Shown here piece after piece: positions 8,077 to 63,658 of a stretch of 64,000 nucleotides of DNA. The DNA is from Candidatus Latescibacterota bacterium (GTDB lineage Bacteria; Latescibacterota; UBA2968; UBA8231), in assembly GCA_965200315.1 (NCBI GenBank), contig OZ241362.1:2816001-2880000 (forward strand), written 5' to 3'. A program made the position numbers and the translations under genes. The stretch's first letter is position 1, and each line of letters begins with the position of its first letter. Under the pieces are notes generated by a model. The model searched no databases. It saw nothing but the letters and a program-made list of their open reading frames with translations, and was not told the origin of the DNA.

Positions 8077-8147
8077 CATCGCGGCCTTTGCCTGTCGGAT
8101 GGGGAAGTGTCCTTTATACTCCAGACGCAGCCACTCGGCGCAGTGGG

Positions 8148-8570
8148 TCAGTCGTGAGTTATGATCTTCCACTTCTTCTTCTGCATCGGAATCACATACC
8201 CAGATCCTTCAGGTGCTTCCCTGTGTTCCCGAGCCTCGCGCGTGATCTCCGGCCACCAATGTAGGAAGTGCATAACTTGGGTCCAGATTTTCTTTTCTGG
8301 ATATTGGCTAGCAAAAAAAAAGGCCGTCAAGCCCGACTCACGCCAAGCAGCCCTTTCGGCCCGATTCCGAGAAATCCGAATATCGCCCGAGATCACGATC
8401 CACTCCCCCTCACGGCCTAATGCTTCAAGCCAAGTGACATCCTCTGTCTGCTGATTAAAACGGACTCTAAGGTGCTCTACTGTCCAGTCTCCTCGTTCTA
8501 CACGGTCATCTAGGGCAATCAACGCCTCAGCTAGACGATGAGAGATGTTGTTGTCGAGGAAAAACCTCAC
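8148..8570 (-). CDS. PIN-domain toxin (VapC45-like)
   Basis: FFLDNNIS, EDVTWLEALGREGEWIVISGD; overlaps the upstream antitoxin by 4 nt. Confidence 0.85.
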   Translation of the reverse strand: MRFFLDNNISHRLAEALIALDDRVERGDWTVEHLRVRFNQQTEDVTWLEALGREGEWIVISGDIRISRNRAERAAWRESGLTAFFFASQYPEKKIWTQVMHFLHWWPEITREAREHREAPEGSGYVIPMQKKKWKIITHD

Positions 8571-9244
8571 GCTGCTAATTGTGCCTCGTATGTGACAGCA
8601 TCGCTTACTTCCTTAAGAGTGGCATCGTACCACCAAGCGACCCGGTCCATGTCTTGCTCGGCTCGATAGGTGCGACTCAGGAGACGAGTGCGGACACCGC
8701 TGGGATTGCATATCGGTGCTCCGAAACTACGAGTAGGTTCGATGATGACTGTGCTCTCCCGGCCCATAGGATGCCAACACACCGGGGCACCTGTTTCCGA
8801 AAAATCTAGCTCGTCGTCAGGCAGAACAGTCCTGACGAAGTCCTTAAAGTACTGTTCGTCGGTGACGATGTCGTGCAGTGCAGTCTCTTCCACTTGCTGG
8901 AGGATACGGCGGCCATCTGTGCGAAAGCTGCGCTGCGAAAATGGATGCGAATGGCCCGTGAGCTGAGCTGCTTTGTGCGAGGCAATGCGCAAGGTCGACC
9001 ACGGTACCCCCTTCTCGCGAAAACTCCTCAAGGCTCGGACTTCGATAAGATCGACAAAGCGCAAGATAGGGGTTTCCCCGGCCTCCGTTGAAGCAAACAC
9101 AGGCGGCAGCTTGTGACGAGATTCATTCCAGGTGTAGCTATAACCCCGCGTCCAACGCCGAATGGTGCTGACGGGAACACCCGTCAGCCGGGCCGCTTCC
9201 GCGACGCTATAGACGCCATGTCCAATATATAAGTAATCTGCCAT
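8567..9244 (-). CDS. Antitoxin with HTH and DUF433 domains (VapB45-like)
   Basis: YSVAEAARLTGVPVSTIRRW HTH; IIEPTRSFGAP...EVSDAVTYE. Confidence 0.85.
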   Translation of the reverse strand: MADYLYIGHGVYSVAEAARLTGVPVSTIRRWTRGYSYTWNESRHKLPPVFASTEAGETPILRFVDLIEVRALRSFREKGVPWSTLRIASHKAAQLTGHSHPFSQRSFRTDGRRILQQVEETALHDIVTDEQYFKDFVRTVLPDDELDFSETGAPVCWHPMGRESTVIIEPTRSFGAPICNPSGVRTRLLSRTYRAEQDMDRVAWWYDATLKEVSDAVTYEAQLAA

Positions 9245-9361
9245 TTTGTGCTCCTTTATAGAGCGATCTTTGTCGCCTTGAATCTACCTAACCGATTTCC
9301 GCAGGTCTTTTACCTTAAGATACATAGAGCTACCGCGTCAATGCCACGCTGGCTTGTACCT

Positions 9362-11122: not shown

Positions 11123-11303
11123 AATCCCTCCTTTGCTTGGGAAGTAGCCAGTTTTTGTGCCGCTCTCTATGCAGAATTAAAAACGCCGCGTCAAGTTGTG
11201 GCACGAGCTGACGTGGGGCAGCGCCGCTTGCAATCTGCATGGCCAATTATCGTTATTTTTGACTAGTGCATCGATCCTTCCCGACAGCAAAAAGGCCAGC
11301 CTT

Positions 11304-12080
11304 ATGCCCGCACCTATCCTCCTGACCGACTCCCAAGTCCAAGCCTACCTAACCAATGGCTATATCACCGTGCAGACCGCTCATCCGCCCGCGGTCCACC
11401 AAAATATCCACCGCCAAATCGAAACCCTCTTCGCCATCGAAGGCAATCCCGGCAACGACATCCTCCCCAAAATCCCGGACCTGCACCAAATTCTCCGCGA
11501 TCCCGCTGTCGCCGGTGCTCTCCAGAGCCTCCTCGGCCCCTCCTACCTCATCCACCCGCACCGCCACTGCCATCACAACCCCAGTGGGTCCCGAGGCCAA
11601 GGCATGCACCAAGATAGCTATGAAAACGACCAGAGCGTCCGCCATCACCGCACCCGCTGGACCATGGCCTTCTACTATCCACAGGACGTCAGCTTGGACA
11701 TGGGGCCGACCGCGATTTTGCCGGCCACTCAGTACTACAATTCGTCTAAACAAGCTTATGAGCGGGAAGAACAGCCCCTCTGCGGCCGGGCCGGAACAGT
11801 GACCATCGTCCACTACGACCTCTGGCATCGCGCCATGCCCAACGCCAGTGACCGCGACCGCTTCATGGTCAAGTTCCTCTTCACCCGCATGGGCGAGCCG
11901 CAGACATCCTCGTGGGACCACCGCGACGGCACTTGGCAAGCCGCAGGCACTGATCCTCCCGCCGAGCTATGCCGTCGCGCCTGGGACTGGATGCGCGGCA
12001 GTGATGATACCACAGCTCCTACGGAGGTTTCGCTCGGCGAGTTGCGTCAGAGCCTAGAGGCTGAAGCCGAAACCGAGCGC
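11304..12080 (+). pseudogene. PhyH-HEAT dioxygenase truncated after the catalytic domain (paralogue of 3478..4920)
   Basis: GNPGNDILP, HRHCH, MHQD, YDLWHRA; similarity stops at the first HEAT repeat (~12080) and the frame runs on to 12335 through unrelated sequence. Confidence 0.75.
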
Positions 12081-12081
12081 C

Positions 12082-12932: not shown

Positions 12933-13997
12933 CTACAAAGACCCTTTGAACAGGATCGCGCCCATGGTGGACAACCAGCTAGCTAGTACGATGCCGATGG
13001 TCCAGCGGAAATAGACACCGAGCTTGCCGTGGAAGTCGCGTACGGTCGCGTCGTACTTATTGTGCAAATTGCGCTCTGACGTGTCGATCTTATCATTTAG
13101 CGTCTGAAACGACGCCTCTCGCTTCTCATCCGACATGTCAATCTTATCGTTCAGCGTCTGAAACGACGCCTCTCGCTTCTCATCCAGAACCTGAACCGAT
13201 GCGTCAATCTTATCGTTCAGCGTCTGAAACGACGCTTCCCGCTTCCCATCCGACGTGTCGATCTTGTCATGCAGCGTCTGAACTGACGTGGCACTCTCCT
13301 CGCGCAGCGTCTGAACCGACATGTCGATCTTGTCATGCAGCGTCTGAACTGACGCGGCACTCTCCTCGCGCAGCGTCTGAACCGACATGTCAATCTTATC
13401 ATGCAGCGTCTGAACCGACGCTTCCCGCTTCCCATCCGACATGTCAATCTTATCGTTCAGCGTCTGAAACGACGCTTCCTGCTTCCGATCCGACGTGTCG
13501 ATCTTATCATGCAGCGTCTGAACCGACGCGGCACTCTCCTCGCGCAGCGTCTGAACCGACGTGTCAATCTTATCATGCAGCGTCTGAACCGACGCTTCCC
13601 GCTTCCCATCCGACATGTCAATCTTATCGTTCAGCGTCTGAAACGACGCTTCCTGCCTCCGATCCGACGTGTCGATCTTATCATGCAGCGTCTGAACCGA
13701 CGTGGCACTCTCCTCGCGCAGCGTCTGAACCGACATGTCAATCTTATCATGCAGCGTCTGAACTGACGCTTCCCGCTTCCCATCCGACATGTCAATCTTA
13801 TCGTTCAGCGTCTGAAACGACGTGTCGATCTTCTCGTGCAGACCTCGGTGTGACGCCGTGCTCTCCCCGCGCAGCTCCTGAACCGACACATCCAGCTTCT
13901 CACCGACCGCTCGCACGTCGCTTTCAATTAGCTCCAAGCGGCGGTTGATCTGCTGCAATACGTCGCGGGTGGTTATCTCAGATGTTTCAGTGGCCAT
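12933..13997 (-). CDS. Coiled-coil repeat protein with C-terminal membrane anchor (DUF1640/CCDC90-like architecture)
   Basis: AGGAG RBS before ATG 13997; repeated SVQTLHDKID units; hydrophobic end FRWTIGIVLASWLSTMGAILFK. Confidence 0.75.
   Translation of the reverse strand: MATETSEITTRDVLQQINRRLELIESDVRAVGEKLDVSVQELRGESTASHRGLHEKIDTSFQTLNDKIDMSDGKREASVQTLHDKIDMSVQTLREESATSVQTLHDKIDTSDRRQEASFQTLNDKIDMSDGKREASVQTLHDKIDTSVQTLREESAASVQTLHDKIDTSDRKQEASFQTLNDKIDMSDGKREASVQTLHDKIDMSVQTLREESAASVQTLHDKIDMSVQTLREESATSVQTLHDKIDTSDGKREASFQTLNDKIDASVQVLDEKREASFQTLNDKIDMSDEKREASFQTLNDKIDTSERNLHNKYDATVRDFHGKLGVYFRWTIGIVLASWLSTMGAILFKGSL
13081..13830. repeat. Intragenic tandem repeat, 33/54-bp units in a 174-bp higher-order unit
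   Basis: Near-identical blocks recur at 13441 and 13615 (174 bp apart); core CAGCGTCTGAA repeated many times. Confidence 0.95.
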
Positions 13998-14194
13998 CTC
14001 AGCATTGCTCCTGATTAGGGTTAAAAGTAGGCAACAGGAACAGACAAGCAAAATGCGAACCACCTTTTTTGTCTGGCAAGGTCTCCGTTGTGTAGCTGCT
14101 TTTCTGTATCTAATCGCAGACAGTGTGCCCCCTGCCCGATACAGCCGCCTCTCCCCTTGATAGCTGCCCATCAGGCCCTATCTTGTTTGTCGCC

Positions 14195-15238: not shown

Positions 15239-16074
15239 AACCCAACAAAGTCAAACGCACCCTCAAAGAGGGCGGCACTGTCATCGGCACCATGACCTTT
15301 GAATTTTGCACCCCGGGCATTGCCCGCCTCTCTGCCGAGGCTGGTGCCGAATTCATTATGTACGACATGGAGCACACCGGCTGGAGCGTCGAGACAGTGC
15401 GCGACCTGATCGCCACCACCAACTCCGACCACATCGAGCCTTTTGTGCGGGTGCCGGCGACCCAATACCACTTCATCGCCCGCGTCCTCGACGTTGGGGC
15501 CCGAGGCGTCATGGTGCCGATGGTTAGCGACGCGCAGCAGACCGAGGTCATCGTGCAGTCGGGCAAGTACCCGCCGATTGGCCAGCGCGGAGCAGCCTTT
15601 CAAATTGCCCACGACCACTTCGCCGAAGGCTCCATTGTCGGCAAAATTGACCACGCCAATACCGAGAGCCTGCTGATCGCTCAGATCGAAAACCGCCCCG
15701 GCCTCGAAAATGTCGATCGCATCGCCGCGGTAGATGGGATTGATATACTGTGGATTGGAGGTTTTGACCTGAGCAACTTCTTGGGGATTCCTGGGCAGTT
15801 TGACCATCCCGAATTTACCGCCGCCCTCGACCGCGTCGTCGATGCCTGCGAGCACCACGGCAAGGCCGCTGGCTACTTGGTCAATACCATCGAGGAAGGG
15901 ACGGAGATGCTGAGCCGAGGCTTTCGCTGCATAGCTTACGGCGGCGACTTGTGGCTCTACCGCCGCGCCTTGGCCGAAGGCATCGAAGGGCTGCGGACGA
16001 TCGTCTGGCGGCGGTGCCCGCAGAGACCCTATCCATTTGGGTTGAGCCAACTCACAACACAAATCAGGAAGTGA
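15235..16074 (+). CDS. HpcH/HpaI aldolase family protein
   Basis: DMEH, VRVP, LDVGARGVMVP, KYPPIGQRG, QIE; ATGA overlap with the upstream gene. Confidence 0.9.
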   Translation: MKPNKVKRTLKEGGTVIGTMTFEFCTPGIARLSAEAGAEFIMYDMEHTGWSVETVRDLIATTNSDHIEPFVRVPATQYHFIARVLDVGARGVMVPMVSDAQQTEVIVQSGKYPPIGQRGAAFQIAHDHFAEGSIVGKIDHANTESLLIAQIENRPGLENVDRIAAVDGIDILWIGGFDLSNFLGIPGQFDHPEFTAALDRVVDACEHHGKAAGYLVNTIEEGTEMLSRGFRCIAYGGDLWLYRRALAEGIEGLRTIVWRRCPQRPYPFGLSQLTTQIRK

Positions 16075-16078
16075 GAGT

Positions 16079-16315
16079 ATGGACAACCGAATTACTATTG
16101 ATCCTCAAGTGTATCACGGCCAAGCCTGCATTAAGGGGACGCGCCTTCCTGTGCATCAAATCCTCCGGATGCTCGCCAACGGGGATACCATCGAAGACCT
16201 ACTTCAAGAATATCCTTCTATAACATGGGAAGATATCCTCGCTTGCTTCGACTATGCAGCCTCACTGGCTGAAGAGCAAATGGCCCCTCTTGAAGTTCTC
16301 TCGGGCGAGGTATGA
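16079..16315 (+). CDS. DUF433 antitoxin
   Basis: RITIDPQVYHGQACIKGTRLPV...LLQEYPSIT.EDI.A. Confidence 0.9.
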   Translation: MDNRITIDPQVYHGQACIKGTRLPVHQILRMLANGDTIEDLLQEYPSITWEDILACFDYAASLAEEQMAPLEVLSGEV

Positions 16316-16461
16316 AGATCTTAGTCGATGAGCACATCCCTCTCAGGACGGTCCAAGCCTTGCCTATGATGGGGCATGACGTCCGCGATATTCGTCTTGG
16401 CGTATGCCGGAGACTAGACGAACCGAGCGCGATACCGACGACTCAGGACAAAGCTAAGTGA
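16312..16461 (+). pseudogene. DUF5615 PIN-like toxin, collapsed by internal deletion
   Basis: MKILVDEHIP...GHDVRDIR...TTQDK* in only 49 aa; ATGA-coupled to DUF433. Confidence 0.75.
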
Positions 16462-16567
16462 CAACGGAAGGAACCTTGGAGCCGAGAAATCGAGACCTTT
16501 GACCGGGCTGCATAGCGTCTGGCGGCGGTAACATAAAAGGTACGCCCGGGCAAGGGCAGGCACGGTA

Positions 16568-16613
16568 CATAAGAAAGCTCAGGCCCTCCTTACAGGACCT
16601 GAGCTTTCTTATG
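16568..16613. terminator. Long hairpin, probable terminator between convergent units
   Basis: Perfect 16-bp stem CATAAGAAAGCTCAGG / CCTGAGCTTTCTTATG. Confidence 0.8.
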
Positions 16614-16641: not shown

Positions 16642-18372
16642 TTACGACGAGTGCATTTCCGAAATAAGTCCCCTAGTATCCTTTAACAAGCCATTGAGTT
16701 CTTGGAAGAGACCGCTGCGAGATTCCTGCATGTTTCTGAGTTCTTCGAGTTCCTCATCTATAGCCGCAATACGCCTGCCGATGGTTTGATCTATATAAGT
16801 GTCAGTAGCTTCATCGAAATGGAGTTCAACTGCGTGGGCGGCTTCATCAAATCCCGCCCGAATAGCTGCCCGGCCTTCGCGCAAGTCCTGTTCCCGTTTG
16901 TCTTCATCGGCATCTTCTTTTATTTGAAACACAATGTTCAAAACAGCCCCTGCTGCGGCCAAAACCCAACCAGCATTTGCGATTGTACGCGTCCACTTTA
17001 CCGCCTCCCACGGCCTAAAGGATTTCCCAAAGACATGACCAATGGATTTAACCATGCCGTGAGTTGCTGTACCCGAATACTGGTTAAGTTTGAACAGACC
17101 GGAGAGGGTTGCGGTTGTGGAGGTAAACGACTTCTCTACTAGGAACCGCCCAAGTTGGCGGGTTACATCTCCACCTTGTTTAATTTTAGACGATGTGGCT
17201 GGATCAATACCGAGACCTTGGACTCTTTCTCTAAGCCTCGATAGCAACTCTTTGGCTAATTCGCTCTCCGCGATTTGCCCGACCCCCTCAGCGAGATCGC
17301 TGATACCCTCTTCCATTGCTTTTTGAACGAGACCTGACAGCTCATCCGTCTGTTTTTCAACGCGCTCTTGGGCCGCCGTTAATTCCCGATCAACAGCCTC
17401 AGTGTCAGCGTCTCCGCGAATTAGGTCAATTAGGTCAGCAGCCTTGCGTCCTTCCTCCCGAATTTTGTTTACCGTCTGCTGGACCCGGCTTTCCGCTGCC
17501 TGCGAAAGCCGCGCCTTACCACTCACTAATGCACGTCTTTGCTGAGTAACCAATTCTTGCAGAGCATCTACATCGACATCATCACTCGACTCGGCTGCGA
17601 GCGCCTCTTGAAGTACTTGTTCGAGCGTATAGAGCGATGTTGTATAACGTGAGGCCAATCCCTTCTCTTCCACAAACGCATTAAAATTATCGACGAAATC
17701 GTCGAAACCACTTCTGTTGTGGGAGATTGTGCGAAACTCTTCATCTTGTTCTGTACGAGCCTCAAGCGCGGCCTCAGCATCCACAAAAGACAGGCGAAGC
17801 TGTTCCGGAGTAAACGGTACGAGAACTTTTCGGAGATCTTCCCGGATCACACCCTGAGCCGCTAACGTATTACCTTCGGCATGTCGTTGCATCTTGTTTA
17901 CGACCAACAGCATTTCGTGAGCTTTTTCCCGCTCAATAGCGAGTTTCCTGAAATGTTCTGCTATATGGGCGTCAAATAGTTCGTTGGTGACAACAAAGAC
18001 CAAAAGGTCGGTTTTGCTGATCGCCTCATAAGTTATTTCGTCGTGGTCGGGTCGTATCTCCGTATGGACGCCAGGTGTATCTATCACTTTGATACCGTTC
18101 CATTCAAACTGTTGCACCTGTTGAGTCGTAATTCCAGCCCCGATTGCAATGTCTTCTCGTCCGATCATCACTTTGAGAATCGAAGATTTACCTGCACTGT
18201 ATTGACCGGCAAAAACCACCTGCACAGCCTCGTCAGTTAGAGCAATTTCTCTCGGAACCCGGTGGGCAAGCTCTCGTACCTTGTCAAAAGGAGCATCTTT
18301 GAGAACCTTTTCTACCTTTTCAAGCAAAGCCTGCCCTCTTTTTGTCCAATGCTGAAGTTTTAAAGTTTTCAT
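16642..18372 (-). CDS. Dynamin-like GTPase (LeoA/HP0731-like)
   Basis: G1 GQYSAGKS, G2 ITT, G3 DTPG, G4 NKMQ; helical stalk; GHVFGKSFRPWEAVKW plus a hydrophobic paddle; GGAGG RBS. Confidence 0.85.
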   Translation of the reverse strand: MKTLKLQHWTKRGQALLEKVEKVLKDAPFDKVRELAHRVPREIALTDEAVQVVFAGQYSAGKSSILKVMIGREDIAIGAGITTQQVQQFEWNGIKVIDTPGVHTEIRPDHDEITYEAISKTDLLVFVVTNELFDAHIAEHFRKLAIEREKAHEMLLVVNKMQRHAEGNTLAAQGVIREDLRKVLVPFTPEQLRLSFVDAEAALEARTEQDEEFRTISHNRSGFDDFVDNFNAFVEEKGLASRYTTSLYTLEQVLQEALAAESSDDVDVDALQELVTQQRRALVSGKARLSQAAESRVQQTVNKIREEGRKAADLIDLIRGDADTEAVDRELTAAQERVEKQTDELSGLVQKAMEEGISDLAEGVGQIAESELAKELLSRLRERVQGLGIDPATSSKIKQGGDVTRQLGRFLVEKSFTSTTATLSGLFKLNQYSGTATHGMVKSIGHVFGKSFRPWEAVKWTRTIANAGWVLAAAGAVLNIVFQIKEDADEDKREQDLREGRAAIRAGFDEAAHAVELHFDEATDTYIDQTIGRRIAAIDEELEELRNMQESRSGLFQELNGLLKDTRGLISEMHSS

Positions 18373-18386
18373 CGGTTACTTCCTCC

Positions 18387-26463: not shown

Positions 26464-26859
26464 ATGACCCAACGCAAAGCACACAACCTCGCCTGGCCTT
26501 GGACCGAAAATTTCCGCATCTCGCAGGCAGTGCAAGTCGGCGATACGATCTATGTCTCCGGCCAAGGGCCGCTCGACTCAGAGGGCCAACTCGTCGGCGA
26601 AGGCGACATGGCCGCGCAGTCGCGCCAAGTCTTTGCCAACATCCGCGCCGTACTCGTCGAGGCCGGCGCGACCATGGACGACGTGGTCAAGATCACCTCG
26701 TTTATCACCGATACCAGCCGCTATGCAGAATACTCGGCCGCCCGCGCCGAAACCTTTCCCAACCACATCCCCGCCAGTTCTACCGTGACGGTCGCCGACT
26801 TGGTGATACCCGGTATGCTCGTCGAGGTCGAAGCCATAGCCGTTGTGGGTAGCAGCTAA
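26464..26859 (+). CDS. RidA/YjgF/UK114 family protein
   Basis: SQAVQVGDTIYVSGQ, DVVK, LVEVEAIA. Confidence 0.93.
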   Translation: MTQRKAHNLAWPWTENFRISQAVQVGDTIYVSGQGPLDSEGQLVGEGDMAAQSRQVFANIRAVLVEAGATMDDVVKITSFITDTSRYAEYSAARAETFPNHIPASSTVTVADLVIPGMLVEVEAIAVVGSS

Positions 26860-26960
26860 CTACCTCGGCTCCCGATATACATCCGGCCCGGAGCCGCCGA
26901 CCAAGATATCCAAATCAACGCCCTTGTCGGCTTGGAGCACGTCCCGCGTGGCGACCGCGC
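26858..26960. repeat. Direct copy of the 3' end of the IlvD/Edd gene (28430..28557)
   Basis: 85 bp with 4 mismatches vs 28430..28514, then a 24-bp deletion and ~18 further matching bases. Confidence 0.95.
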
Positions 26961-27086
26961 AAACTAGTCTATATCGTGCCCGATGAGTCACCGGGTAGAA
27001 GGCCCGTTATAGATTTTTCCCGTGGATCATGTGTCAGAGATAAACGTCTTGGGAAAAATCCTCGACCAAGTCTTTGGCCAAATAGG

Positions 27087-27202
27087 CTGTCAATTATCCT
27101 GTCAAATAAGAGCGAATTTTGCCCAGTTTCCTTGTTGATATAATATAAGTTCATTATTTATTGTATATTAAAAAAATTTACTATCTGTCAAATTAACTGT
27201 CA
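27087..27202 (+). promoter_or_regulatory. Two pairs of CTGTCA direct repeats in the AT-rich Fic promoter
   Basis: CTGTCA at 27087, 27099, 27185 and 27197 (12-bp period in each pair). Confidence 0.6.
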
Positions 27203-27217
27203 TATAAGGGGACAAAT

Positions 27218-28411
27218 ATGGACTGGGAAAGGTTCTCCTTCGAGTACAATCTCAACGCTCAAGACTTCTTTTGCGACCTCGTCTCTATCGAGGCATACAA
27301 GGAAGCCTCTCTGAACCTAGCGTTCCCACAAGAGTGGCAGAACCAGCTCAACAGGCTGAACCGAGTGCGTGCGGTTCATGGAACGACTGCAATAGAGGGC
27401 AACCCTCTTTCCGAGGCCGAGGTTGCCCAGCAGATGGAACGACTCGAACAACAAAATCACCACGATGACAGGAAGACCGCGACAAAGGAACAAGTGCAGA
27501 TCAGGAACGCCGGGGAGGCTCAGGCTTGGGTGAGGCAACGATTTCTTCCGAACAGCCCGCCTATTGGCTTGCAAGACATCCTCACAATGCACGAGATGAT
27601 CACCCGGGATTCGGATACCGGCCATAATGTTCCTGGGGAATTCCGCCGCTTTTCCGTCACCGTGGGCACGGAAGATCTTGGAGGAGTCCATAGAGGTGCC
27701 CCGTACGAATGGCTGCCTCGCTTAATGGAGGAGTACATCGATTTCATCAACTCTCGCCGGCTCGACGACAATCATCCGGTTATACGCGCCCTGCTCGCCC
27801 ACTTCTTCTTGGTGACCATTCACCCTTTTGGAGATGGCAACGGCAGGGTCTCCCGACTCGTTGAAGCAGGCGTCCTCTTTCAGCGTGGGTACAATGTCCA
27901 TGGCTTTTACGGACTCTCCAATTACTTCTATCGCCACGAACAGGAATACAAATCAATCCTACAACAATGCCGCAGAAGCCAGCCTTTTGACGTGAGGCCG
28001 TTTATTCGCTTCGGCGTGGCCGGCTTTGCGAGTGAGCTCAAAGACATAAACAATTTCATCAAGACGAAGATCAATCGGCTGGTGTACCGGACCATGATCG
28101 TCCGTGCATTCAATAAAAGGATAGGTGCTAGACGGCGGCTCCTAAACCAAAGAGAATTCAGTCTCCTCGACTTTCTCCTGAGCGAGACCGAGCCGGTAGA
28201 TCCCTTCTCAGATACCTCGTCCAGCAGAATCAGTCTGTCAGAGCTACTGGAGGCAAACTACATGCAGTCGGCATATCGGAATGTCACGAGACGAACTTTT
28301 CATAGGGAGTTGGTACGACTCAGTGAACTTGGGTTCATCAAGTTCACTAAAGAGGAGTCGATTCAGGACTGGGTCGTGGAGTTGGATTTTGGAGCCATAC
28401 CAAAGTATTAA
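27218..28411 (+). CDS. Fic family protein (class II-like) with C-terminal winged HTH
   Basis: Canonical HPFGDGNGRVSR; inhibitory TTAIEGN; VTRRTFHRELVRLSELG. Confidence 0.93.
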   Translation: MDWERFSFEYNLNAQDFFCDLVSIEAYKEASLNLAFPQEWQNQLNRLNRVRAVHGTTAIEGNPLSEAEVAQQMERLEQQNHHDDRKTATKEQVQIRNAGEAQAWVRQRFLPNSPPIGLQDILTMHEMITRDSDTGHNVPGEFRRFSVTVGTEDLGGVHRGAPYEWLPRLMEEYIDFINSRRLDDNHPVIRALLAHFFLVTIHPFGDGNGRVSRLVEAGVLFQRGYNVHGFYGLSNYFYRHEQEYKSILQQCRRSQPFDVRPFIRFGVAGFASELKDINNFIKTKINRLVYRTMIVRAFNKRIGARRRLLNQREFSLLDFLLSETEPVDPFSDTSSSRISLSELLEANYMQSAYRNVTRRTFHRELVRLSELGFIKFTKEESIQDWVVELDFGAIPKY

Positions 28412-28431
28412 GTGATGCGCTAAGCACTGAA

Positions 28432-30156
28432 CTACCTCGGCTCCCGATATACATCCGGCCCGGAGCCACCGACCAAGATATCCAAGTCAACGCCTTTGTC
28501 GGCTTGAAGCACGTGCTTGATATACAAGCCGGCATAACCCCGCGTGACGACCGGCGCGGGCGGCGTCCACGCTTGTCGCCTGCTTTGTAGCTCCTCGTCG
28601 GGCACCGCCATGTTCAACGACCGCTTCTCCACGTCTAACTCGATCAGGTCGCCGTCCTGCACCAAGGCCAGCGGGCCACCCACGGCGGCTTCGGGCGCGA
28701 CGTGCAGAATCACCGTGCCGTAGGCCGTGCCGCTCATCCGTCCGTCCGAGATGCAAACCATGTCGCGCACGCCTTGCTGCAATAGCTTCTTGGGCAATCC
28801 GAACTTCCCGGCCTCGGGCATCCCGGGGAAACCTTTTGGGCCGATGCCCTTTAAGACCAACACGCTATCTTTGTCCACGTCGAGATTGGGATCGTCAATC
28901 CGCGCCCTGTAGTTTTCTATACTTTCAAACACCACGGCTCGTCCGCGGTGCTGCATCAGCTCGGGCGCGGCGGCCGACGGCTTGATAATCGCCCCATCCG
29001 GGCAGAGGTTGCCCCGCAGCACGGCGATCCCGGCCGCTTCCTTGAGCGGATTGTCGATCGCGGCGATGACCTCTCGGTTGTAGCATTGGGCACCCGAGGT
29101 GTTTTCGCCGAGCGTCTTGCCCGTCACCGTCAACGTATCCAGATGCAGATGCTCCTTCATCTCTTGGATCACGGCGGGCAAGCCCCCGGCGTAGAAGAAG
29201 TCCTCCATCAGATATTTGCCCGAAGGCATTAGGTTGACCAAGTGCGGCATGCGGCTGCCCAAGCGGTCGAAGTCGTCTAATTCCAACTCGACGCCGAGCC
29301 GTCCGGCGATGGCCAACAGATGCACCACGAAGTTGGTCGAACCGCCCAGCACTGCGTTGACCTTGATGGCGTTTTCTATGGCTGGCCGCGTCAAAATGCG
29401 CGACATGTACAAACCTTCTCTCACCATCTCGACGATGCGATTGCCCGCCAGATGCCCCAAGCGCTTGCGCCGCGCATCTGGCCCTGGAATGGCTGCACCG
29501 CTCGGCAGCGTCAGCCCGACAGTCTCGACCATGCAGGCCATCGTTGAGGCCGTGCCCATGGTCATGCAGTGGCCGTCCGAGCGCGAAATCCCGCCCTCGG
29601 CCTCCAGGTAATCTAAGCGCGAGATGCTCCCGGCTCGCAGCTCGGTCGTAAAGCGATAGACATCCGTGCCGGAGCCGATATCCTGATTGCGGAACTTGCC
29701 GTTGAGCATCGGCCCGCCCGTCACCGCAATGGTCGGCAAATCTACGCTCGCCGCGCCCATCAGGCTGGCTGGCGTCGTTTTGTCGCAGCTAGTTAGCAGC
29801 ACCACCCCGTCGAGCGGATTGGCGCGGATGCTTTCCTCCACGTCCATGCTCGCCAAATTGCGGTAGAGCATGGTCGTTGGCTTCATCATTGTCTCGCCGA
29901 GCGAAGTGACTGGAAATTCGAGCGGAAAGCCCCCGGCCTCGTACACCCCGCGCTTGACCTGCTCGGCCAAGACCCGCAGATGGGCGTTGCAAGGATTCAA
30001 GTCCGACCACGTGTTGCAGATCCCGATCACGGGTCGGCCGTCGAACATCTGCTCGGGATGGCCTTGGTTTTTGGCCCAGCCGCGGGATACAAATCCTTGG
30101 TGCCACTCGTCGCCAAACCACCCCGCACTGCGGAGCTTCTTGTTGTCGCCTGTCAT
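28432..30156 (-). CDS. IlvD/Edd family dehydratase (pentonate/arabinonate dehydratase-like)
   Basis: PCNAH, CDKT, GHCMTMGTASTM, GGSTN, SDGRMSGT, HVAPEAAVGG. Confidence 0.95.
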   Translation of the reverse strand: MTGDNKKLRSAGWFGDEWHQGFVSRGWAKNQGHPEQMFDGRPVIGICNTWSDLNPCNAHLRVLAEQVKRGVYEAGGFPLEFPVTSLGETMMKPTTMLYRNLASMDVEESIRANPLDGVVLLTSCDKTTPASLMGAASVDLPTIAVTGGPMLNGKFRNQDIGSGTDVYRFTTELRAGSISRLDYLEAEGGISRSDGHCMTMGTASTMACMVETVGLTLPSGAAIPGPDARRKRLGHLAGNRIVEMVREGLYMSRILTRPAIENAIKVNAVLGGSTNFVVHLLAIAGRLGVELELDDFDRLGSRMPHLVNLMPSGKYLMEDFFYAGGLPAVIQEMKEHLHLDTLTVTGKTLGENTSGAQCYNREVIAAIDNPLKEAAGIAVLRGNLCPDGAIIKPSAAAPELMQHRGRAVVFESIENYRARIDDPNLDVDKDSVLVLKGIGPKGFPGMPEAGKFGLPKKLLQQGVRDMVCISDGRMSGTAYGTVILHVAPEAAVGGPLALVQDGDLIELDVEKRSLNMAVPDEELQSRRQAWTPPAPVVTRGYAGLYIKHVLQADKGVDLDILVGGSGPDVYREPR

Positions 30157-41833: not shown

Positions 41834-41950
41834 CAACTTGGCGCGGGGCGCGGCGGTGTGTATGTTGAGCAAGCTGTGCCGCAACCCAAACCGAAGGCTG
41901 ACTATGGCCAATATCACCTGCGCCCTTTTCATTGGCAACAACGTTACCGC
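41834..41950. repeat. Diverged direct copy of the upstream region and start of the SGNH gene (44573..44689)
   Basis: 117-bp gap-free alignment, about 20 mismatches; ATGGCCAATATCACC in both, offset 2739. Confidence 0.92.
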
Positions 41951-44493: not shown

Positions 44494-44642
44494 CTGAAGT
44501 TCTCCAAGAGTAGATTGCATAAAATCGCCGAGGTCGAAGTCCTGAGTGCCGAACACGAGGCCATTGGGCTAGCAATTTGGCGCGAGGCGAAGCGGTGTTT
44601 ATGTTGAGCAAGATACACCTCAACCCATATTGAGGACTGACT

Positions 44643-45281
44643 ATGGCCAATATCACCCACGCCCTTTTCATTGGCAACAGCTTCACCGCACGCAACGATC
44701 TGCCCGGCCTCTTGGCCCGACTCGTCCACGCCGGCGGCAAGGGCGAGTTGGAATGCGAGCTCATCAGCGGTGGCGGGGCCTCGCTTAGGACCCACTTGAA
44801 CAAGGGCGAGGCGCAAAAGCGCTTGCAGACATCCCGTTGGGATTACGTCGTATTGCAGGAGCAAAGCACTCTGCCGGTCAAAAACCCCAAGCGCACCGGC
44901 GAAAATATCCGCGAGTTCGACGCCATAATTAAGGCGGCACAGGCGCAGACGGTACTCTACATGACTTGGGCGCGGCAAAATGCTCCCGAGACCCAAGCCG
45001 CCTTGAGCGAGACCTACGCCGAAATAGGGCGCGAGATCGGCGCGACCGTCGTGCCCGTGGGCCTAGCTTGGCGCGATTGCTTAGCGGCGCATCCCGATAT
45101 CGTCCTGCACGACAAGGACCAAAGCCATCCCAACCTCGCCGGGTCCTATCTGGCGGCTTGCACATTTTACGCGACGCTCTTTATCGGCCGGTCCGAGTCC
45201 ATTCCCAACATCGACATTGACCTAGACGCCGAAACGATCAACGCCCTCCACCAAGCTGCGCTGGCAGCGGCGCGCACCTAG
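44643..45281 (+). CDS. SGNH/GDSL hydrolase-like protein
   Basis: LFIGNSFT, WDYVVLQEQS, DQSHP. Confidence 0.85.
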   Translation: MANITHALFIGNSFTARNDLPGLLARLVHAGGKGELECELISGGGASLRTHLNKGEAQKRLQTSRWDYVVLQEQSTLPVKNPKRTGENIREFDAIIKAAQAQTVLYMTWARQNAPETQAALSETYAEIGREIGATVVPVGLAWRDCLAAHPDIVLHDKDQSHPNLAGSYLAACTFYATLFIGRSESIPNIDIDLDAETINALHQAALAAART

Positions 45282-51571: not shown

Positions 51572-52183
51572 AGGAGATACAGTACCTGCTTGAGGCCGTC
51601 GCGAGCATCCACGTCGGCGGCCGTGACCACCCCCTGTCTGAGTAAGCCCAACGTATCCACCAACAGAGGCCGTTTGCGGCCTTTGATCTTTTTGCCGGCG
51701 TCATAACCAAGGGGGTGGCCTTGGGTTGTGGTCTTAATCGTCTGACTGTCGACGAGGCCCGCCGACGGCATCGCAGCCCGTCCGTTCCGGCGGCGCGCCT
51801 GCTGGGTACGCGGAGCCAGCACCGGCGACCAGACCCCTTGCAGGCTCCAGCGACGAAAGTAATCATACACCGTTTGCCACGGCCCAAAACAACCCGGCAA
51901 CCAAGCCCAAGGACACCCCGTCTTGTTCAAATACAAAAGGCCGTTGACGATTTGGCGGCGATCCCGCGGGGGCCGACCCGGACCGTCAAGACGCCAGCGC
52001 GGCACCGGCCGCACCGGTTCGATCCGCCGCCATTGGGCATCGGTTCGATCGGTGGCATATGGCATAGGCGGCGTACTCAGCATACAAGCCTTTCTGTTCA
52101 GATTGTGTGGTGAACACCTGAATAGGGCTCGATGAGTACGCCGGTTCAAATAGCGGCTACATTAAGGGTTTGCAGACGCCTTC
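51572..52183 (-). mobile_element. IS5-family (IS1031-like) element, 3'-truncated transposase
   Basis: TDAQW, KTGCPW..LP..FGPWQTVY.YF..W, DSQTIK, GYDAGKKIKGRKR; terminal GAAGGCGTCTGCAAA (minus strand) next to TAA 52184-52186. Confidence 0.88.
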
Positions 52184-52194
52184 TAAGGACCGCC

Positions 52195-58379: not shown

Positions 58380-58381
58380 GT

Positions 58382-59398: not shown

Positions 59399-59521
59399 AG
59401 GCTACGGACAAACCTCGTCAAAGTCGGCAGCGAGTTCTTCTACGCCGACTAGCCTACCACCCTTGAGACAAGAAGCAAATTGCTTTTTATTTCCGAACCT
59501 GTCTATTAGGAGAATGACGCC

Positions 59522-60382
59522 ATGACGAATCAAATTGACCACACTTTCAAGGCCGCGCCGACCCACGACGAACTGCGCGAAATGGACCGCGACTTGCGCT
59601 TCTACCCCAGCACCGTCGATGACCCCACCACCCTCGCTACCGAACAGATCGCTGCTTTCAACCGAGACGGCTACCTCAAGGGCTTTCGCATTTTCGACGA
59701 GGCTGAGATCGCCGGACACCGGGCCTTTTTTGACGGGCAACTGAGAAAGGTCTTGGCTGCCGGCTATGGCAGCTTCACCCTTAGCTCGGCGCATCTCAAG
59801 TTCGCCAAGGTCTATGACCTCATGCACCACCCCAAGATCCTCGCCTACATCCACGATCTCCTCGGCCCCGAACTAATCGGCCTAGCCTCGCACTACTTCT
59901 GCAAGATGCCCAAGGACGGCACGACCATCTCCTGGCACCAGGACGCCAGCTATTGGCCGCTGACGCCCTCCAAGACGGCGACCGTCTGGCTGGCTATTGA
60001 CGACGCTGACATCGACAATGGTTGTATGCGCTTCGTCGCGGGCTCGCATCTCCACGGCCAACTCGAATTCCGCCCGAGCGACGCCTCGGAAAACAACGTC
60101 CTCAATCAGACGGTAGATGATGTTGAGCGCTACGGTGAGATCGTCGATGTCGAGCTCAAGGCCGGTGAGATATCGATCCACTCCGATCTGCTTTTGCACA
60201 GCTCACACTACAATGAATCGGATCGCCGTCGTTGCGGGCTAACGCTGCGCTACTGCACCCCCGACGTGCGCGCGATCCCCGGCTACGCTTGGGAAAAGGA
60301 AGGCGTGCTGATCAACGCCGCCGATCCTGCTGGCCACTGGGGCAACCCGAGTCGGCCCGAGCGCGACTACGAGGTGGCCTGA
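59522..60382 (+). CDS. PhyH-family dioxygenase
   Basis: FNRDGY, SWHQDASYW, NGCMRFVAGSH, HSDLLLHSS, RRCGLTLRY. Confidence 0.92.
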   Translation: MTNQIDHTFKAAPTHDELREMDRDLRFYPSTVDDPTTLATEQIAAFNRDGYLKGFRIFDEAEIAGHRAFFDGQLRKVLAAGYGSFTLSSAHLKFAKVYDLMHHPKILAYIHDLLGPELIGLASHYFCKMPKDGTTISWHQDASYWPLTPSKTATVWLAIDDADIDNGCMRFVAGSHLHGQLEFRPSDASENNVLNQTVDDVERYGEIVDVELKAGEISIHSDLLLHSSHYNESDRRRCGLTLRYCTPDVRAIPGYAWEKEGVLINAADPAGHWGNPSRPERDYEVA

Positions 60383-60400
60383 GCCGCATAGCGCGGATCT

Positions 60401-60466
60401 TTTGCTACGGCATGAGCAACAACGAATACTCCTTCTGTCCCTATCACTCGTCCGAGGACTGCCATC
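60401..60466. repeat. Diverged copy of an internal sulfatase segment (62621..62687)
   Basis: ACGGCATGAGCAACAACGAATACTCCTT and CCGAGGACTGCCATC present at both sites. Confidence 0.9.
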
Positions 60467-60833
60467 GGCAGACTTGGAAAGGATCACGATAATGACATTC
60501 GGCTAGTGTCCGACAAGCGGCTGCTACGCGCTTCTTAGCCACCTCTAAGGTATCGGATTCCCAAAAAACCTCGGGGCCATCCAGAAATTCGGGCGTCTGA
60601 TTCAAATCCCAAAAGTCGGCGGGGCCAAAGACTACAGAGTCAAGTATGCGGGGGCAGGAGGAAGGGTTGTCCTCTTGAGCAGCACAAACGGGTACTGCCG
60701 CTTCGTACCACGCCGCGATAGCCTGTTCCCAATTGGCCTGTTGGTTTTGACACGGAACACTTGGGAGCGGACTTTTCGGGTCTGAGCAGGCCCCCCAAAT
60801 ACAACCGACTATTAAAAGAAAAAGGAAACGCAT
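60444..60833 (-). CDS. Cys-rich putative lipoprotein
   Basis: MRFLFLLIVGCIWGAC lipobox; C-terminus runs into the antisense sulfatase copy. Confidence 0.65.
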   Translation of the reverse strand: MRFLFLLIVGCIWGACSDPKSPLPSVPCQNQQANWEQAIAAWYEAAVPVCAAQEDNPSSCPRILDSVVFGPADFWDLNQTPEFLDGPEVFWESDTLEVAKKRVAAACRTLAECHYRDPFQVCRWQSSDE

Positions 60834-60841
60834 ACTACCCC

Positions 60842-61468
60842 CTATGGCTGACTACACGATATGGGTATTTTTTCGTACTTACACACATTCTTTACTTCGT
60901 AGTACTTCTCGTACATGATACTGTTGATTTCATCCAAGTCCTCTACAGTTCTGCGAACGACCCACTTGGGTTTCATGTTCTCCATTCTATTTGAACAACC
61001 CTTTCCGCTGATGATTTTATTATACGTTATTTTTAAGGTACAAGTTCCATATGGTTCCGTTGCCGTCCGGTCCTTACACACTTCACCGTAGCGATCACAG
61101 CTTGAATCGTAAAAGCTATGCCCACTACCTATACAGCGGTGTTTGGCCTCTACGTGATAGTGATAGAGATAATCATCGTCTGGATAGTGAATTACAGGAA
61201 GGACTTGGGGGCTTTCTGGTCTCGGACGGTCATCCTTGGTTAGCGCAATGCGGTATAAGACATCTCGGGAGCCCGTCAGTCGAGTTGCCGAACCACACGA
61301 CTCGGGGCAGCACCCTGTCGCCGCATTTCTTACCGGAGTGGTAGCTTGGTATCCGGGCGGGGCGTTATAGACGCGCGAGCCGTGCCCTTGGACAGGATGG
61401 GCCGCCCAAAGGATAATGGCCAAACATAACACCAGCCATTGATGCAAGGGTCGATTAATAGCTGTCAT
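60842..61468 (-). CDS. Cys-rich secreted hypothetical protein
   Basis: AGGAGA RBS, signal peptide, about ten Cys; AT-richer than the flanks. Confidence 0.7.
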   Translation of the reverse strand: MTAINRPLHQWLVLCLAIILWAAHPVQGHGSRVYNAPPGYQATTPVRNAATGCCPESCGSATRLTGSRDVLYRIALTKDDRPRPESPQVLPVIHYPDDDYLYHYHVEAKHRCIGSGHSFYDSSCDRYGEVCKDRTATEPYGTCTLKITYNKIISGKGCSNRMENMKPKWVVRRTVEDLDEINSIMYEKYYEVKNVCKYEKIPISCSQP

Positions 61469-61728
61469 GGTACGTCTCCTTTAGAGAGAATGGTGAAAGA
61501 GTAGCGTCGATTAGAGCCGTACAGACCAAGGCCAATCCGGCACCAAACGAAGGGCGGATAGGCGACCAACGGCTCCCGCTCATCGGCAGCGCCTACGAGA
61601 CTAGGACAGAATATACCGGCCGGAACCGCCATTTTGCTGATCGTTAGCAAAAAACAGTTCTGCCGTAATGCGCTTGTCATTGACGGCTCGTTTGACCAAG
61701 GGCCTTATCAAAGTTCAAATATGACGTA

Positions 61729-61759
61729 AGTCTACCAAAAAAAAAAACTTAGGTGTCAA
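61729..61759 (-). promoter_or_regulatory. Sigma70-type promoter with an 11-nt homopolymer in the spacer
   Basis: Minus strand TTGACA-19 bp (includes T11)-TAGACT, upstream of 61468. Confidence 0.55.
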
Positions 61760-61919
61760 GTACTTTTTGCAGTTTTTTTAAAAAAATGCGGACGAAAGAA
61801 TCAGCCCTTCGTCCTCTTTGGGTTTAACCGTTGTTATCGGTAGTTCATTCTCTATACTTTTGCTAGTACAATAGTTAGCAATCATGCAGAGATACCGATA
61901 CTGCGTACCCGGCCGCATT

Positions 61920-62078
61920 ACGCTGCGCTACTGCACCCCCGACGTGCACGCAATCCCCGGCTACGCTTGGGAGAAGGAAGGCGTGCTGATCAACGCCGCC
62001 GACCCGGCTGGCCACTGGGGCAACCCGACCCGGCCCGAGCGCGACTACGAGGTGGCCTGAGCCGCGTAGCGCAGATCT
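61920..62078. repeat. Direct copy of the 3' end of PhyH gene 59522..60382 (60242..60400)
   Basis: 159-bp gap-free alignment with 9 mismatches, stop codon included. Confidence 0.97.
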
Positions 62079-62173
62079 ACGAGTTTTAACGCGCCTTCAA
62101 GGCGTACAAATTAACGCGCAGGCTAGGCCCGCTACCCGCGCATCTGACGGGTCTGGTCTTTTCTACATAAGAG

Positions 62174-63658
62174 ATGCCCATGGCAAACGACAGACCGCAC
62201 GTTCTCCTGATTACCACCGACCATTGGTCTGCTTCCCTCTTGGGCGAAGCCAACCATTCCGCCATTCTCACCCCCACCCTCGACTCCTTAGCCCGCAACG
62301 GCACCCGCTTCTCCAACGCCTATAGCGAATGCCCGGTCTGCATTCCCGCTCGTCGCACCCTGATGACGGGGACTTCGCCGCGCACCCACGGAGACCGGGT
62401 CTTCAAAACGACCGCCCCCATGCCCGAGCTGCCGACCGTGGCGCAAACCTTCCGCGACGCAGGCTACCAAGCGTATGCCGTTGGCAAGCTCCACGTCTAT
62501 CCCCAGCGCGACCGCATCGGTTTCGACGACGTGCTCCTCGACGAAGAGGGCCGGCCGCACTTGGGAGCGGTTGACGACTACGATCTCTTCTTGGCGGATA
62601 AAGGTCATGCGGGCATGGGGTTTGCCCACGGCATGAGCAACAACGAATACTCCTTTCGCCCTTGGCACTTGCCCGAGGACTGCCATCCCACCTGCTGGGC
62701 GGCTCACCAGATGAGCCGGATGATCAAGCGGCGCAACCCGGCCAAACCCGGCTTCTGGTATCTGTCCTTTCGCCACCCGCACCCACCGCTGGTCCCCTTG
62801 CAGAGCTATCTCGACCTCTACCGCGATATCGAGATCGACGCGCCGCACTGCGGTACTTGGTCGCACGACTTCGACCAATTGCCCTATGCGCTCAAAGTCA
62901 TTCAGGGAGCCAACGTCCACCTCAAGGGGCCGGAGGTCCTGCGCATTCGCCGCGCTTTCTACGCGCTCTGCACCCAGATTGACCACCAGCTTCGCGTGGT
63001 CATCGGCACTTTGCGCGAGGAGGGGCTGCTCGACAATACCATTATTTGCTTCACGGCCGATCACGGCGATATGCTCGGCAACCACGGCTTCTGGGCCAAG
63101 CGCCTCTACTACGAGCAGTCGGCCAACGTGCCGATGATCTTGCTCGGAGGTGGGGACGGACGAGTGCCGCACCACACGGTCGATGACCGCCTCGTCGGCT
63201 GGCAGGATGTCATGCCGACTTTGCTCGACCTAGCGGGCATCGACATCCCCGACACGGTCGAGGGCCTATCCATGGTCGGCGAGGAACGGCGCAGTTATCT
63301 CTACGGCGAATGCGGCGAAGGGACGAATGCCACCCGCATGATCCACGCGGGGCGACACAAGCTGATCTACTATCCAGTCGGCAACCGCGTCCAGCTCTTC
63401 GACCTCGAAAGCGACCCCAGCGAGCTGAACGACCTAACTGGCTCACCCGACCACGCCGCAATCCAAGCCCAGCTTAGCGAGCGCCTCGTCGGCGAACTCT
63501 ACGGCGGCGACAAAGCTTGGGTCAAAGACGATCAACTCGTCGGCTTACCCGACCGGCAATGGGCACCCCATCCCAACCGCAACCTCTCCGGTCAACGCGG
63601 CCTGCACTATCCCACGCTGCCCCAGATCGACGCAGACAAAGTCGTTGGAGCGTCGTGA
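62174..63658 (+). CDS. Sulfatase (formylglycine-dependent)
   Basis: TTDH, CIPARRTLMTG (CxPxR), GKLH, ADHGDMLG. Confidence 0.93.
   Translation: MPMANDRPHVLLITTDHWSASLLGEANHSAILTPTLDSLARNGTRFSNAYSECPVCIPARRTLMTGTSPRTHGDRVFKTTAPMPELPTVAQTFRDAGYQAYAVGKLHVYPQRDRIGFDDVLLDEEGRPHLGAVDDYDLFLADKGHAGMGFAHGMSNNEYSFRPWHLPEDCHPTCWAAHQMSRMIKRRNPAKPGFWYLSFRHPHPPLVPLQSYLDLYRDIEIDAPHCGTWSHDFDQLPYALKVIQGANVHLKGPEVLRIRRAFYALCTQIDHQLRVVIGTLREEGLLDNTIICFTADHGDMLGNHGFWAKRLYYEQSANVPMILLGGGDGRVPHHTVDDRLVGWQDVMPTLLDLAGIDIPDTVEGLSMVGEERRSYLYGECGEGTNATRMIHAGRHKLIYYPVGNRVQLFDLESDPSELNDLTGSPDHAAIQAQLSERLVGELYGGDKAWVKDDQLVGLPDRQWAPHPNRNLSGQRGLHYPTLPQIDADKVVGAS

Follow-up and report, generated by a model that had tools for sequence, protein, structure and literature searches.

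Small blocks of accessory genes in the genome of a Candidatus Latescibacterota bacterium lie between two direct copies of the end of an adjacent chromosomal gene, one copy belonging to the intact gene and the other standing as an orphan on the far side of the cargo. We analyzed one stretch of this single-contig, 5.36-Mb genome (here G000), namely, the 64,000 nucleotides from position 2816001 to position 2880000 (the window), together with comparable loci elsewhere on the chromosome; coordinates are window positions unless stated otherwise. We consider it probable, at roughly 0.6, that the gene-end duplicates are scars of imports in which cargo and a donor's gene end would have entered together by homology-anchored recombination, with no dedicated recombinase. 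The cassettes occupy hot spots between genes, for the most part downstream of gene 3' ends. An earlier note on this DNA had described six such blocks in the window; the recurrent capture scar is partly confirmed, being real and holding for half of the claimed cases.

Gene-end duplicates in the window

Repeats in the window were located with a repeat finder and with a sensitive self-BLAST search (E values up to 1e-3), and the two methods agree. Significant flanking duplicates were found at three of the six blocks (the Fic, secreted-gene, and 3-gene loci), whereas the repeats proposed for the PIN, DUF433, and flippase blocks gave no window-wide BLAST match. At the three accepted loci, the repeats exceed 30 bp and occur nowhere else in the genome, and the inserts between them measure 1.4 to 2.6 kb and contain no integrase or transposase families. 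The window as a whole was screened through 71 open reading frames (ORFs; longest-ORF approximations of genes) with Pfam, and defense genes were called with PADLOC. No integrase family was found among these 71 ORFs, the sole transposase is a truncated IS5 ORF (51472-52149), and the window holds no tRNA, all of which upholds the previous statement that no recombinase is visible; four tyrosine recombinase genes are present in the genome, all outside the window. The statement that the host gene stays intact is likewise borne out by the ilvD-like, PhyH, and sulfatase genes.

At the Fic locus, the direct repeat (26858-26942/28430-28514) is 95.3% identical over 85 bp (E = 3e-32) and extends across a 24-bp gap to about 26960/28557. 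Relatives were represented by one genome per species, with 30 searched and with 18 loci fetched for the Fic comparison and 20 for the secreted-gene comparison. The Fic site is empty in 11 of the 18, in most of which the RidA stop codon touches the dehydratase stop codon with no spacer. Two relatives (G007 and G023) carry the same cassette with the same ends, placed exactly between the two stops and free of any duplicate; three more (G004, G008, and G009) retain 115- to 300-bp cassette remnants with both ends, and G019 and G002 have different cargo at this site. The cassette-dehydratase junction in G000 is identical to that in G007 and G023, its RidA-orphan junction is identical to that in the empty relatives, and the orphan side with the adjoining filler of ~70 bp is private to G000. 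Because junctions of the filled and empty types are combined here, the G000 locus looks like a recombinant between a filled allele and an empty allele. The filler, which matches nothing in the genome or the fetched loci, is presumed to be an illegitimate or circle-closing joint. The two gene-end copies differ at 4 sites in 83 bp, the functional copy departing from the majority of relatives at 3 and the orphan at 1; the functional dehydratase-end states at alignment columns 37, 64, and 76 were found in 0, 0, and 1 of the 18 relatives, respectively. The motif AGCACTGAA at the right border of the cassette was considered as a remnant of the RidA end and ruled out, being the cassette's own conserved end. 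The Fic gene also shows 73 to 79% nucleotide identity over about 1.2 kb to genes in G035, G027, G034, and G025, which belong to another family of the same class, and this similarity hints at transfer of the cassette across families.

The secreted-gene locus carries two repeats. The 3' end of the PhyH gene (x, 60242-60400) recurs as x' (61920-62078) with 94.3% identity over 159 bp (E = 2.5e-65), and a sulfatase fragment (y, 60407-60466) matches the resident sulfatase sequence (y', 62628-62687) with 86.7% identity over 60 bp; on the right side, 550 bp lie between x' and y', and these are missing from the left copy. The GC content of the cargo is 0.49, versus 0.61 in the flanks, and its two secreted proteins match no Pfam family at E values up to 1. 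In all 20 fetched relatives, the PhyH gene, a single x, the 550 bp, and the sulfatase gene stand in a row. The y fragment carries TAT where the resident sulfatase has TGG, an adjacent double change that is common to 4 relatives. Among the x sites at which exactly one copy is off the relatives' majority, the functional copy departs at 5 and the orphan at 3. At least one relative shows the departing state at 6 of the 8 x sites (crude expectation, 0.22 per change; P = 0.002) and at 4 of the 11 y sites (crude expectation, 0.09 per change; P = 0.013). Unusual x states occupy columns 29 and 33 in the orphan and columns 54 to 111 in the functional copy, a mosaic over few sites that is as would be expected from a single crossover between donor and resident.

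This stretch of DNA is present in public sponge metagenome runs. A 1703-bp unitig covering 60358-62060 (from the last part of x through y and the cargo into x') has 0 mismatches in runs X1 and X16, which come from two studies, and 3 mismatches over the same region in run X2. Unitig depths compared with flank depths were 148/148, 23.7/24.4, and 43.9/45.8 in three runs; as unitigs break at a 25-bp stretch common to x and x', this depth parity supports the linear order of the locus, short of proving it. Run X19, from another study and a different organism, contains a 90 to 97% relative of the cargo on a 1434-nt contig (over window positions 60426-61927), which continues for ~128 nt past the right end of the cargo with no match to x' and may represent a candidate donor context. 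A further match at this locus (62279-62352/63748-63821; 74 bp, 80%), between the sulfatase gene and the next ORF, was ruled out as a cassette scar, as the two are tandem paralogues and the match falls in their conserved sulfatase active-site region.

The repeat at the 3-gene block is more diverged (82.9% of 117 bp; E = 7e-28) and involves a gene start, the orphan remaining open for 20 codons before a stop. Matches run through the left copy in 17 of the 30 relatives, and 3 of these cover the whole 4.5 kb at 90 to 91%. The block is an old duplication common across the genus, not a recent capture; it may be the same kind of scar at a 5' end, but old and fixed.

The remaining three blocks did not hold as repeat-flanked cassettes. 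The PIN pair (8111/9359) is 72% identical over 32 nt, its best local match being a 12-nt exact word, and 0 of 400 random pairs scored as high; the DUF433 pair (15988/16505) consists of a 14-nt exact word, and 2 of 400 random pairs scored as high. Both were rejected as flanking duplicates, being only 12- and 14-nt words and BLAST negative, and the random-pair test does not redeem them because the positions had been freely chosen around about ten blocks. Four relatives have the PIN/HTH cassette as one contiguous stretch, and at least 11 lack it between the corresponding two stop codons; the DUF433 cassette varies among relatives and stands at other loci in 7. The flippase pair (50159/52195), again at freely chosen positions, extends over 39 nt at about 79%, which 0 of 400 random pairs reached. 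The proposed flippase-plus-IS5 cassette (50159-50222/52195-52259) was nevertheless wrongly delimited and is rejected, as the flippase gene is resident and conserved in place (91 to 92% in at least 9 relatives and 85 to 86% in two more), and in G044, G021, G001, and others, the flippase end is joined directly to the PhyH gene. The sole insertion at this locus is a 605-bp IS5-derived element, which has only part of the features of an insertion sequence (IS) or transposon. Four copies of this element occur in G000 with 92 to 98% identity (the others at genome positions 3247586-3248185, 3219623-3220222, and 3484441-3485046) and many in relatives (8 listed in G001); it behaves like a nonautonomous IS derivative.

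Gene-end duplicates across the genome

A self-BLAST of the whole genome for unique local repeat pairs (length limit, 700 bp; minimum identity, 80%; spacing, 0.2 to 8 kb), a check that the earlier note had proposed, returned 46 direct pairs versus 3 inverted ones. Counts fell to 3 versus 0 at 8 to 16 kb and to 0 to 1 beyond. Of the 46 pairs, 20 include a gene 3' end within one of the copies, against 7.7 expected (maximum of 15 in 200 randomizations), and 11 include a gene 5' end, against 7.8 expected, both counts resting on crude ORF calls. Across loci, repeat lengths range from 37 to 321 bp and cargo lengths from 0.4 to 4.4 kb, and many repeat pairs are 98 to 100% identical. Some pairs were rejected as cassettes, being internal HsdS repeats, ExbD paralogues, or, in one case, an intragenic repeat.

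Thirty loci were fetched, and 150 of their 205 listed ORFs were scanned, with outer flank ORFs and locus L044 left out. The bracketed cargo often consists of low-GC toxin-antitoxin (TA), restriction-modification (RM), or defense genes. TA cargo comprises Phd/YoeB, HicAB, BrnT, PIN, DUF4160/DUF2442, and MazF; other cargo includes a second Fic gene, DNA methylase, Type III RM, and Eco47II RM genes, and several genes without an assigned family, the RM cargo being located at L026, L040, and L046. PADLOC identified AAA_21 ATPases as AbiLi/PDC-M38A and HEC-01A and assigned the DUF4143 and DUF234 ATPases to PDC-S01 and PDC-S27, respectively; a Schlafen/AlbA_2 cargo gene lies between hsdM and hsdS. 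In total, 10 of 23 cargo proteins had PADLOC matches and 13 had none. No integrase was found among the 150 scanned ORFs, no k-mer or motif was shared above control among 25 repeats, and a simple look at the listed joints revealed no obvious shared microhomology.

Empty single-copy sites in relatives, as found at the Fic and secreted-gene loci, were also found at L024, L025, L037, L033, and L021. At L025 (BrnTA), the 194-bp repeats are 99% identical, x' ends 10 bp into the start of BrnT, and the relatives' x is ~84% identical; five relatives (G021, G010, G014, G020, and G002) hold the cassette with the same left junction and without the right copy, and at least 4 relatives are near-empty. At L024 (AbiLi-like ATPase), where the repeat measures 98 bp at 93%, G003 and G022 are empty; in G012 and G002, the cargo adjoins the same functional gene end as in G000, and there is no orphan. 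Of the 7 sites that differ between the L024 copies, all within the last 31 bp of the functional gene, five relatives match the orphan at 5 to 6 and the functional copy at 1 to 2, depending on the relative. The cargo-to-functional-end junction is therefore common to relatives at three loci (Fic, L024, and L025), where the duplicate is absent from them.

For three further loci, relatives also carry the cargo at other positions. Many relatives are empty at L037 (MazEF), G042 and G001 hold the cassette with a 37- to 38-bp right copy, and in G005, the order is gene end, 540 bp, second copy, and then cargo. The MazEF core stands at a second locus in 6 relatives, with a 38-nt flanking pair in 1 of them (truncated at the edge of the fetched stretch) and none in 2. 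The L033 repeat is 321 bp long at 99%, and the site is empty in about 20 relatives. In G008, it is occupied by the cargo, which is 94% identical (against 89 to 91% for its flanks), with the orphan mostly deleted, and G001 has the cargo elsewhere. At L021 (Phd/YoeB), the cassette is 94 to 97% identical in 7 relatives, against 91% for the neighboring gene; G012 has it at the opposite side of a shared segment. Cargo is thus more similar between species than flanks are at both L033 and L021.

Proposed mechanism and alternatives

The suggestion of capture without a recombinase, by DNA carrying a related allele plus cargo, fits the Fic and secreted-gene loci and, by comparison with relatives, five further loci, but not three of its six original examples. 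In our reading, the incoming DNA would consist of the cargo and a related strain's copy of the neighboring gene end, and this donor end would pair with the resident gene end. Integration would then proceed from a circle by one crossover (Campbell type) or from a linear molecule by one homologous joint and one illegitimate joint (homology-facilitated illegitimate recombination [HFIR]). The donor end would complete the host gene, and the displaced resident end would be left as an orphan beyond the cargo. In line with this order of events, the orphan copy looks ancestral and the cargo-linked functional copy divergent. Cassettes with homology on both sides could be imported without a scar, which would account for the PIN and DUF433 cassettes, and the flanking repeats would permit later loss or the formation of a circle through RecA.

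Several observations weigh against this reading. Empty sites, which had been predicted for sister genomes, were found at the Fic and secreted-gene loci, but the 3-gene block has none in any of the 30 relatives searched. None of these 30 relatives has the secreted-gene cargo at the secreted-gene site, and none has provided a donor with the predicted allele; with one genome per species, close strains are not visible in this set. No excised or circular form was seen in the contigs of public runs, which cannot show rare forms, and circular and linear one-ended integration appear indistinguishable here. The site-pattern tests are crude, since matches are made more numerous by rate heterogeneity at silent sites, and by itself the Fic locus does not reach significance (P = 0.11). 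Several pairs are 99 to 100% identical, which fits duplication within the same genome as well as it fits a conspecific donor. Finally, duplicates are shared with G042 and G001 at L037 and with G008 at L033, so that some scars would have been inherited or moved as a unit.

A more far-reaching version of the proposal, possible but doubtful, is that the cassettes are recombinase-free mobile units for which the gene end serves as a portable homology arm. RecA acting on the two copies would release a circle made up of the cargo and one arm; in a related cell, this circle would reintegrate through one crossover at the same gene, replacing its end. Some 30 scars per genome would be left in this way.

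Among explanations that do without an imported gene end, we regard as unlikely a fresh insertion that truly duplicates a long target, in which free cargo DNA would be ligated into widely staggered breaks, or into breaks repaired by fill-in, yielding two resident copies that are initially identical and diverge later. This model has been drawn for RM units. Many pairs are indeed 98 to 100% identical, and the second MazEF locus, with its 38-nt flanking repeat in one relative, could reflect an additional insertion of this type; the repeats are also unique and variable in length (37 to 321 bp), as in the available part of the report by Furuta, Abe, and Kobayashi (2010; PMC2853133). However, the relatives that share cargo and functional-end junction without a duplicate at three loci are hard to explain in this way, as independent insertion would not recreate that junction. 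Moreover, most departures fall in the functional copy rather than in the orphan, and the departing states match standing variants. A mechanism based on restriction cuts is opposed by the nature of the cargo, most of which (TA pairs, Fic, and secreted proteins) makes no DNA breaks, and no Ku gene was found in the genome. Taken together, the duplicate-free occurrence of the same cargo and junction, the divergence of the functional copy, and the match of departing states to other lineages favor import over fresh target duplication.

A purely local history without transfer, in which a segment with the gene end and the cargo would have been duplicated in tandem and one cargo copy then lost (partial deletion or gene conversion), is decidedly improbable. 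It would suit the BrnTA locus, where x and x' are 99% identical but the relatives' x is only ~84% identical and where x' ends just inside BrnT, as well as the 3-gene block, whose old duplication recurs in 17 of 30 relatives. It requires two precise events per locus, however, and leaves unexplained the allelic differences that match other lineages, the restored empty-type junction between RidA and the orphan at the Fic locus, and the association with low-GC foreign cargo.

Gene 3' ends are common targets of integrative elements, which bring a replacement end. The duplicates could accordingly be attL/attR remnants of site-specific elements whose integrase was lost or acts in trans (as in cis-mobilizable elements), and four tyrosine recombinase genes in the genome could provide such an activity, yet we give this explanation a very small chance. 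The about 30 repeat sequences are all different, and the 25 tested share no k-mer above control; the window contains no tRNA, and neither its ORFs nor the 150 scanned locus ORFs include an integrase; the cargo measures only 0.4 to 4.4 kb; and relatives hold the same cassette without a second att copy.

An assembly artifact, in which metagenome haplotypes with and without cargo were joined in series, is next to negligible: the DNA does occur in sponge metagenome runs and the copies differ by 1 to 17%, like strain variants, but the mismatch-free unitig across the secreted-gene locus in two studies, its flank-level depth in three runs, and similar duplicates in independently assembled relatives all argue otherwise.

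Relation to known systems

Insertion with long target duplication of RM units is said to have been described by Nobusato et al. in 2000. Under the name "insertion with long target duplication," the available part of Furuta, Abe, and Kobayashi (2010; PMC2853133) reports RM genes inserted between unique repeats of 46 to 423 bp that often span a start or stop codon, with no mobility genes and with empty sites in relatives, mostly in competent species, and suggests a role for some property of RM enzymes, such as their breaking of DNA. Its criteria include flanking repeats of more than 30 bp, an insert shorter than 20 kb without other mobile elements, and the presence of both R and M genes; the inserts at our three accepted loci agree in repeats and size but carry no R and M genes. 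In the accessible portion of Mruk and Kobayashi (2014; PMC3874152), long target duplication is mentioned for RM only. As far as these portions go, the likeness to our loci is close: unique direct repeats, from 30 to about 420 bp long, flank a small low-GC insert, often span a stop or start codon while leaving the gene intact, and occur without mobility genes and with a one-copy empty site in a related genome. Therefore, the claim that the scars fit no known class was too strong, although it stands with respect to integrons, IS elements, and tRNA islands; the pattern matches the known RM scar type, extended to non-RM cargo. A limited literature search found, in titles and abstracts, no extension of the long-target-duplication pattern to TA or other defense cargo. 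The differences are that the cargo in the window is non-RM (a SoFic-type Fic gene, secreted proteins, and PhyH genes) and genome-wide mostly TA genes and defense ATPases, and that the copies here, by admittedly crude site tests, appear to behave as two alleles of which the functional one is divergent rather than as a duplicated target. The suggested link to restriction breaks cannot apply to such non-RM cargo.

HFIR and Campbell-type recombination were reportedly described by de Vries and Wackernagel in 2002, by Prudhomme in 2002, and by Meier in 2003. HFIR and circle-mediated homologous insertion are experimentally known (available parts of PMC2884548, PMC5361080, and PMC10770853), the latter in Campylobacter (PMC10770853). 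As described there, these processes share with our loci a single homologous anchor beside foreign DNA, the use of a host gene end as that anchor, and the lack of a dedicated recombinase; they concern laboratory events or single resistance loci, whereas here, the process would be deduced from natural scars at ~30 loci in one uncultured genome. One inherited junction beside one novel junction, as expected for this type of event, was found at the Fic, L024, and L025 loci.

HFIR has also been proposed for the orphan arrays of type VI secretion system effector-immunity modules, Rhs, and contact-dependent inhibition systems (available part of PMC5361080). According to that part, the 3' portion of a conserved gene is exchanged for an incoming module, and the old end becomes a downstream orphan, as in G000; there, however, one conserved toxin gene is reused as the anchor, whereas here, unrelated housekeeping and metabolic genes serve as anchors chromosome-wide. 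Integron cassettes, IS target duplications, and tRNA islands resemble our loci as small promoter-plus-gene units between direct repeats. In contrast to integrons and tRNA islands, the loci have no integrase in the window, no shared attC-like motif, and no tRNA, and in contrast to IS target duplications, the three repeat-flanked loci have no transposase and repeats that are far longer.

Features of the window and neighboring observations

The features discussed above are compiled in Table 1.

Table 1. Positions of cassettes, gene-end copies, and host genes in the window
Locus	Position	Strand	Feature	Basis or remark
PIN	8077..9361	-	PIN_10/HTH toxin-antitoxin cassette (pair 8148-9244)	Pfam; between two convergent stop codons
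DUF433	16018..16530	+	DUF433 pair cassette (DUF433 gene 16079-16315)	Pfam
Fic	26464..26859	+	RidA/YjgF-like gene	Sequence read directly; stop TAA abuts orphan gene-end copy
Fic	26860..26960	-	Orphan copy of last ~126 bp of ilvD-like gene	83 bp gap-free, then 24-bp deletion
Fic	26961..27029	.	Filler of ~70 bp	Between orphan copy and cassette
Fic	27030..28431	+	Fic cassette: AT-rich promoter region and fic (27218-28411)	Pfam Fic; PADLOC SoFic, E = 3.9e-49
Fic	28432..30156	-	Intact ilvD/Edd-family dehydratase gene	Pfam; 3' end 28432-28557 is the functional repeat copy
3-gene block	41834..41950	+	Orphan copy: divergent promoter and first 17 codons of GDSL-like gene	Reads MANITCALFIGNNVTAGGTG, then stop
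3-gene block	44573..44689	+	Functional copy: promoter and start of GDSL/DUF4886 gene (44643-45281)	Pfam
Flippase	about 51584..52188	-	605-bp IS5-derived multicopy element	Truncated transposase ORF 51472-52149
Secreted genes	59522..60400	+	Intact PhyH-family gene	Pfam; stop 60380-60382; 60242-60400 is left copy x
Secreted genes	60401..60466	+	Orphan 66-bp sulfatase fragment y	Joined directly to x
Secreted genes	60467..61919	-	Cargo: two Cys-rich signal-peptide genes (60444-60833, 60842-61468)	1453 bp
Secreted genes	61920..62078	+	Orphan copy x' of PhyH 3' end	Upstream of sulfatase
Secreted genes	62174..63658	+	Intact sulfatase gene	Pfam; 62621-62687 is resident y'

Many PhyH paralogues occur among the 71 window ORFs. 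To the right of the DUF433 cassette, a low-GC stretch (16642-20501; GC content, 0.45 to 0.51) encodes two dynamin-like GTPases with PADLOC matches to LeoA (E = 1.6e-108) and LeoBC (E = 2.9e-97), a predicted Eleos-type defense pair; its right flank was found in only 4 relatives, so that this block is itself accessory. The DUF433 cassette is separated from the LeoA-like gene by a stretch with a 46-nt imperfect palindrome (16568-16613; 83%), possibly a terminator. A tandem array at 13075-13961, with periods of 33, 54, and 66 nt and 14 copies of a 233-nt register, lies inside a 412-amino-acid ORF (12933-14171, minus strand) encoding a repetitive helical protein with weak apolipoprotein-like Pfam matches.

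Elsewhere in G000, a noncoding repeat of ~130 bp occurs in ~27 copies with 67 to 86% identity (e.g., genome positions 3886115-3886250, corresponding to L037 positions 3216-3352). One copy directly follows the right repeat of the MazEF locus, one lies in the cargo of L041, and one lies ~1 kb from L034; the repeat was considered as a cassette site and set aside, showing no clear tie to the cassettes, and may be an element of accessory regions resembling repetitive extragenic palindromes or miniature inverted-repeat transposable elements. A unique 172-bp inverted repeat pair (genome positions 1220112-1220283/1221534-1221705) adjoins a tyrosine recombinase gene (1219121-1219681). The single ComEC gene in the genome was considered as a sign of competence and is uninformative, as the profile also matches noncompetent controls.

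Implications

For annotation, the orphan copies are pseudofragments and should not be called genes. If the proposed import by homology-anchored recombination is correct, it would argue against a dependence of long duplications on restriction enzyme cuts, and an orphan gene end beyond a cargo would be a sequence signature with which imports can be dated and traced. It would also explain "integrase-free" defense islets, and much of the turnover of small defense and TA genes in uncultured symbionts would need only host recombination and a shared gene end. If the cassettes were in addition mobile units, defense and TA genes would spread through the symbiont population without any integrase.

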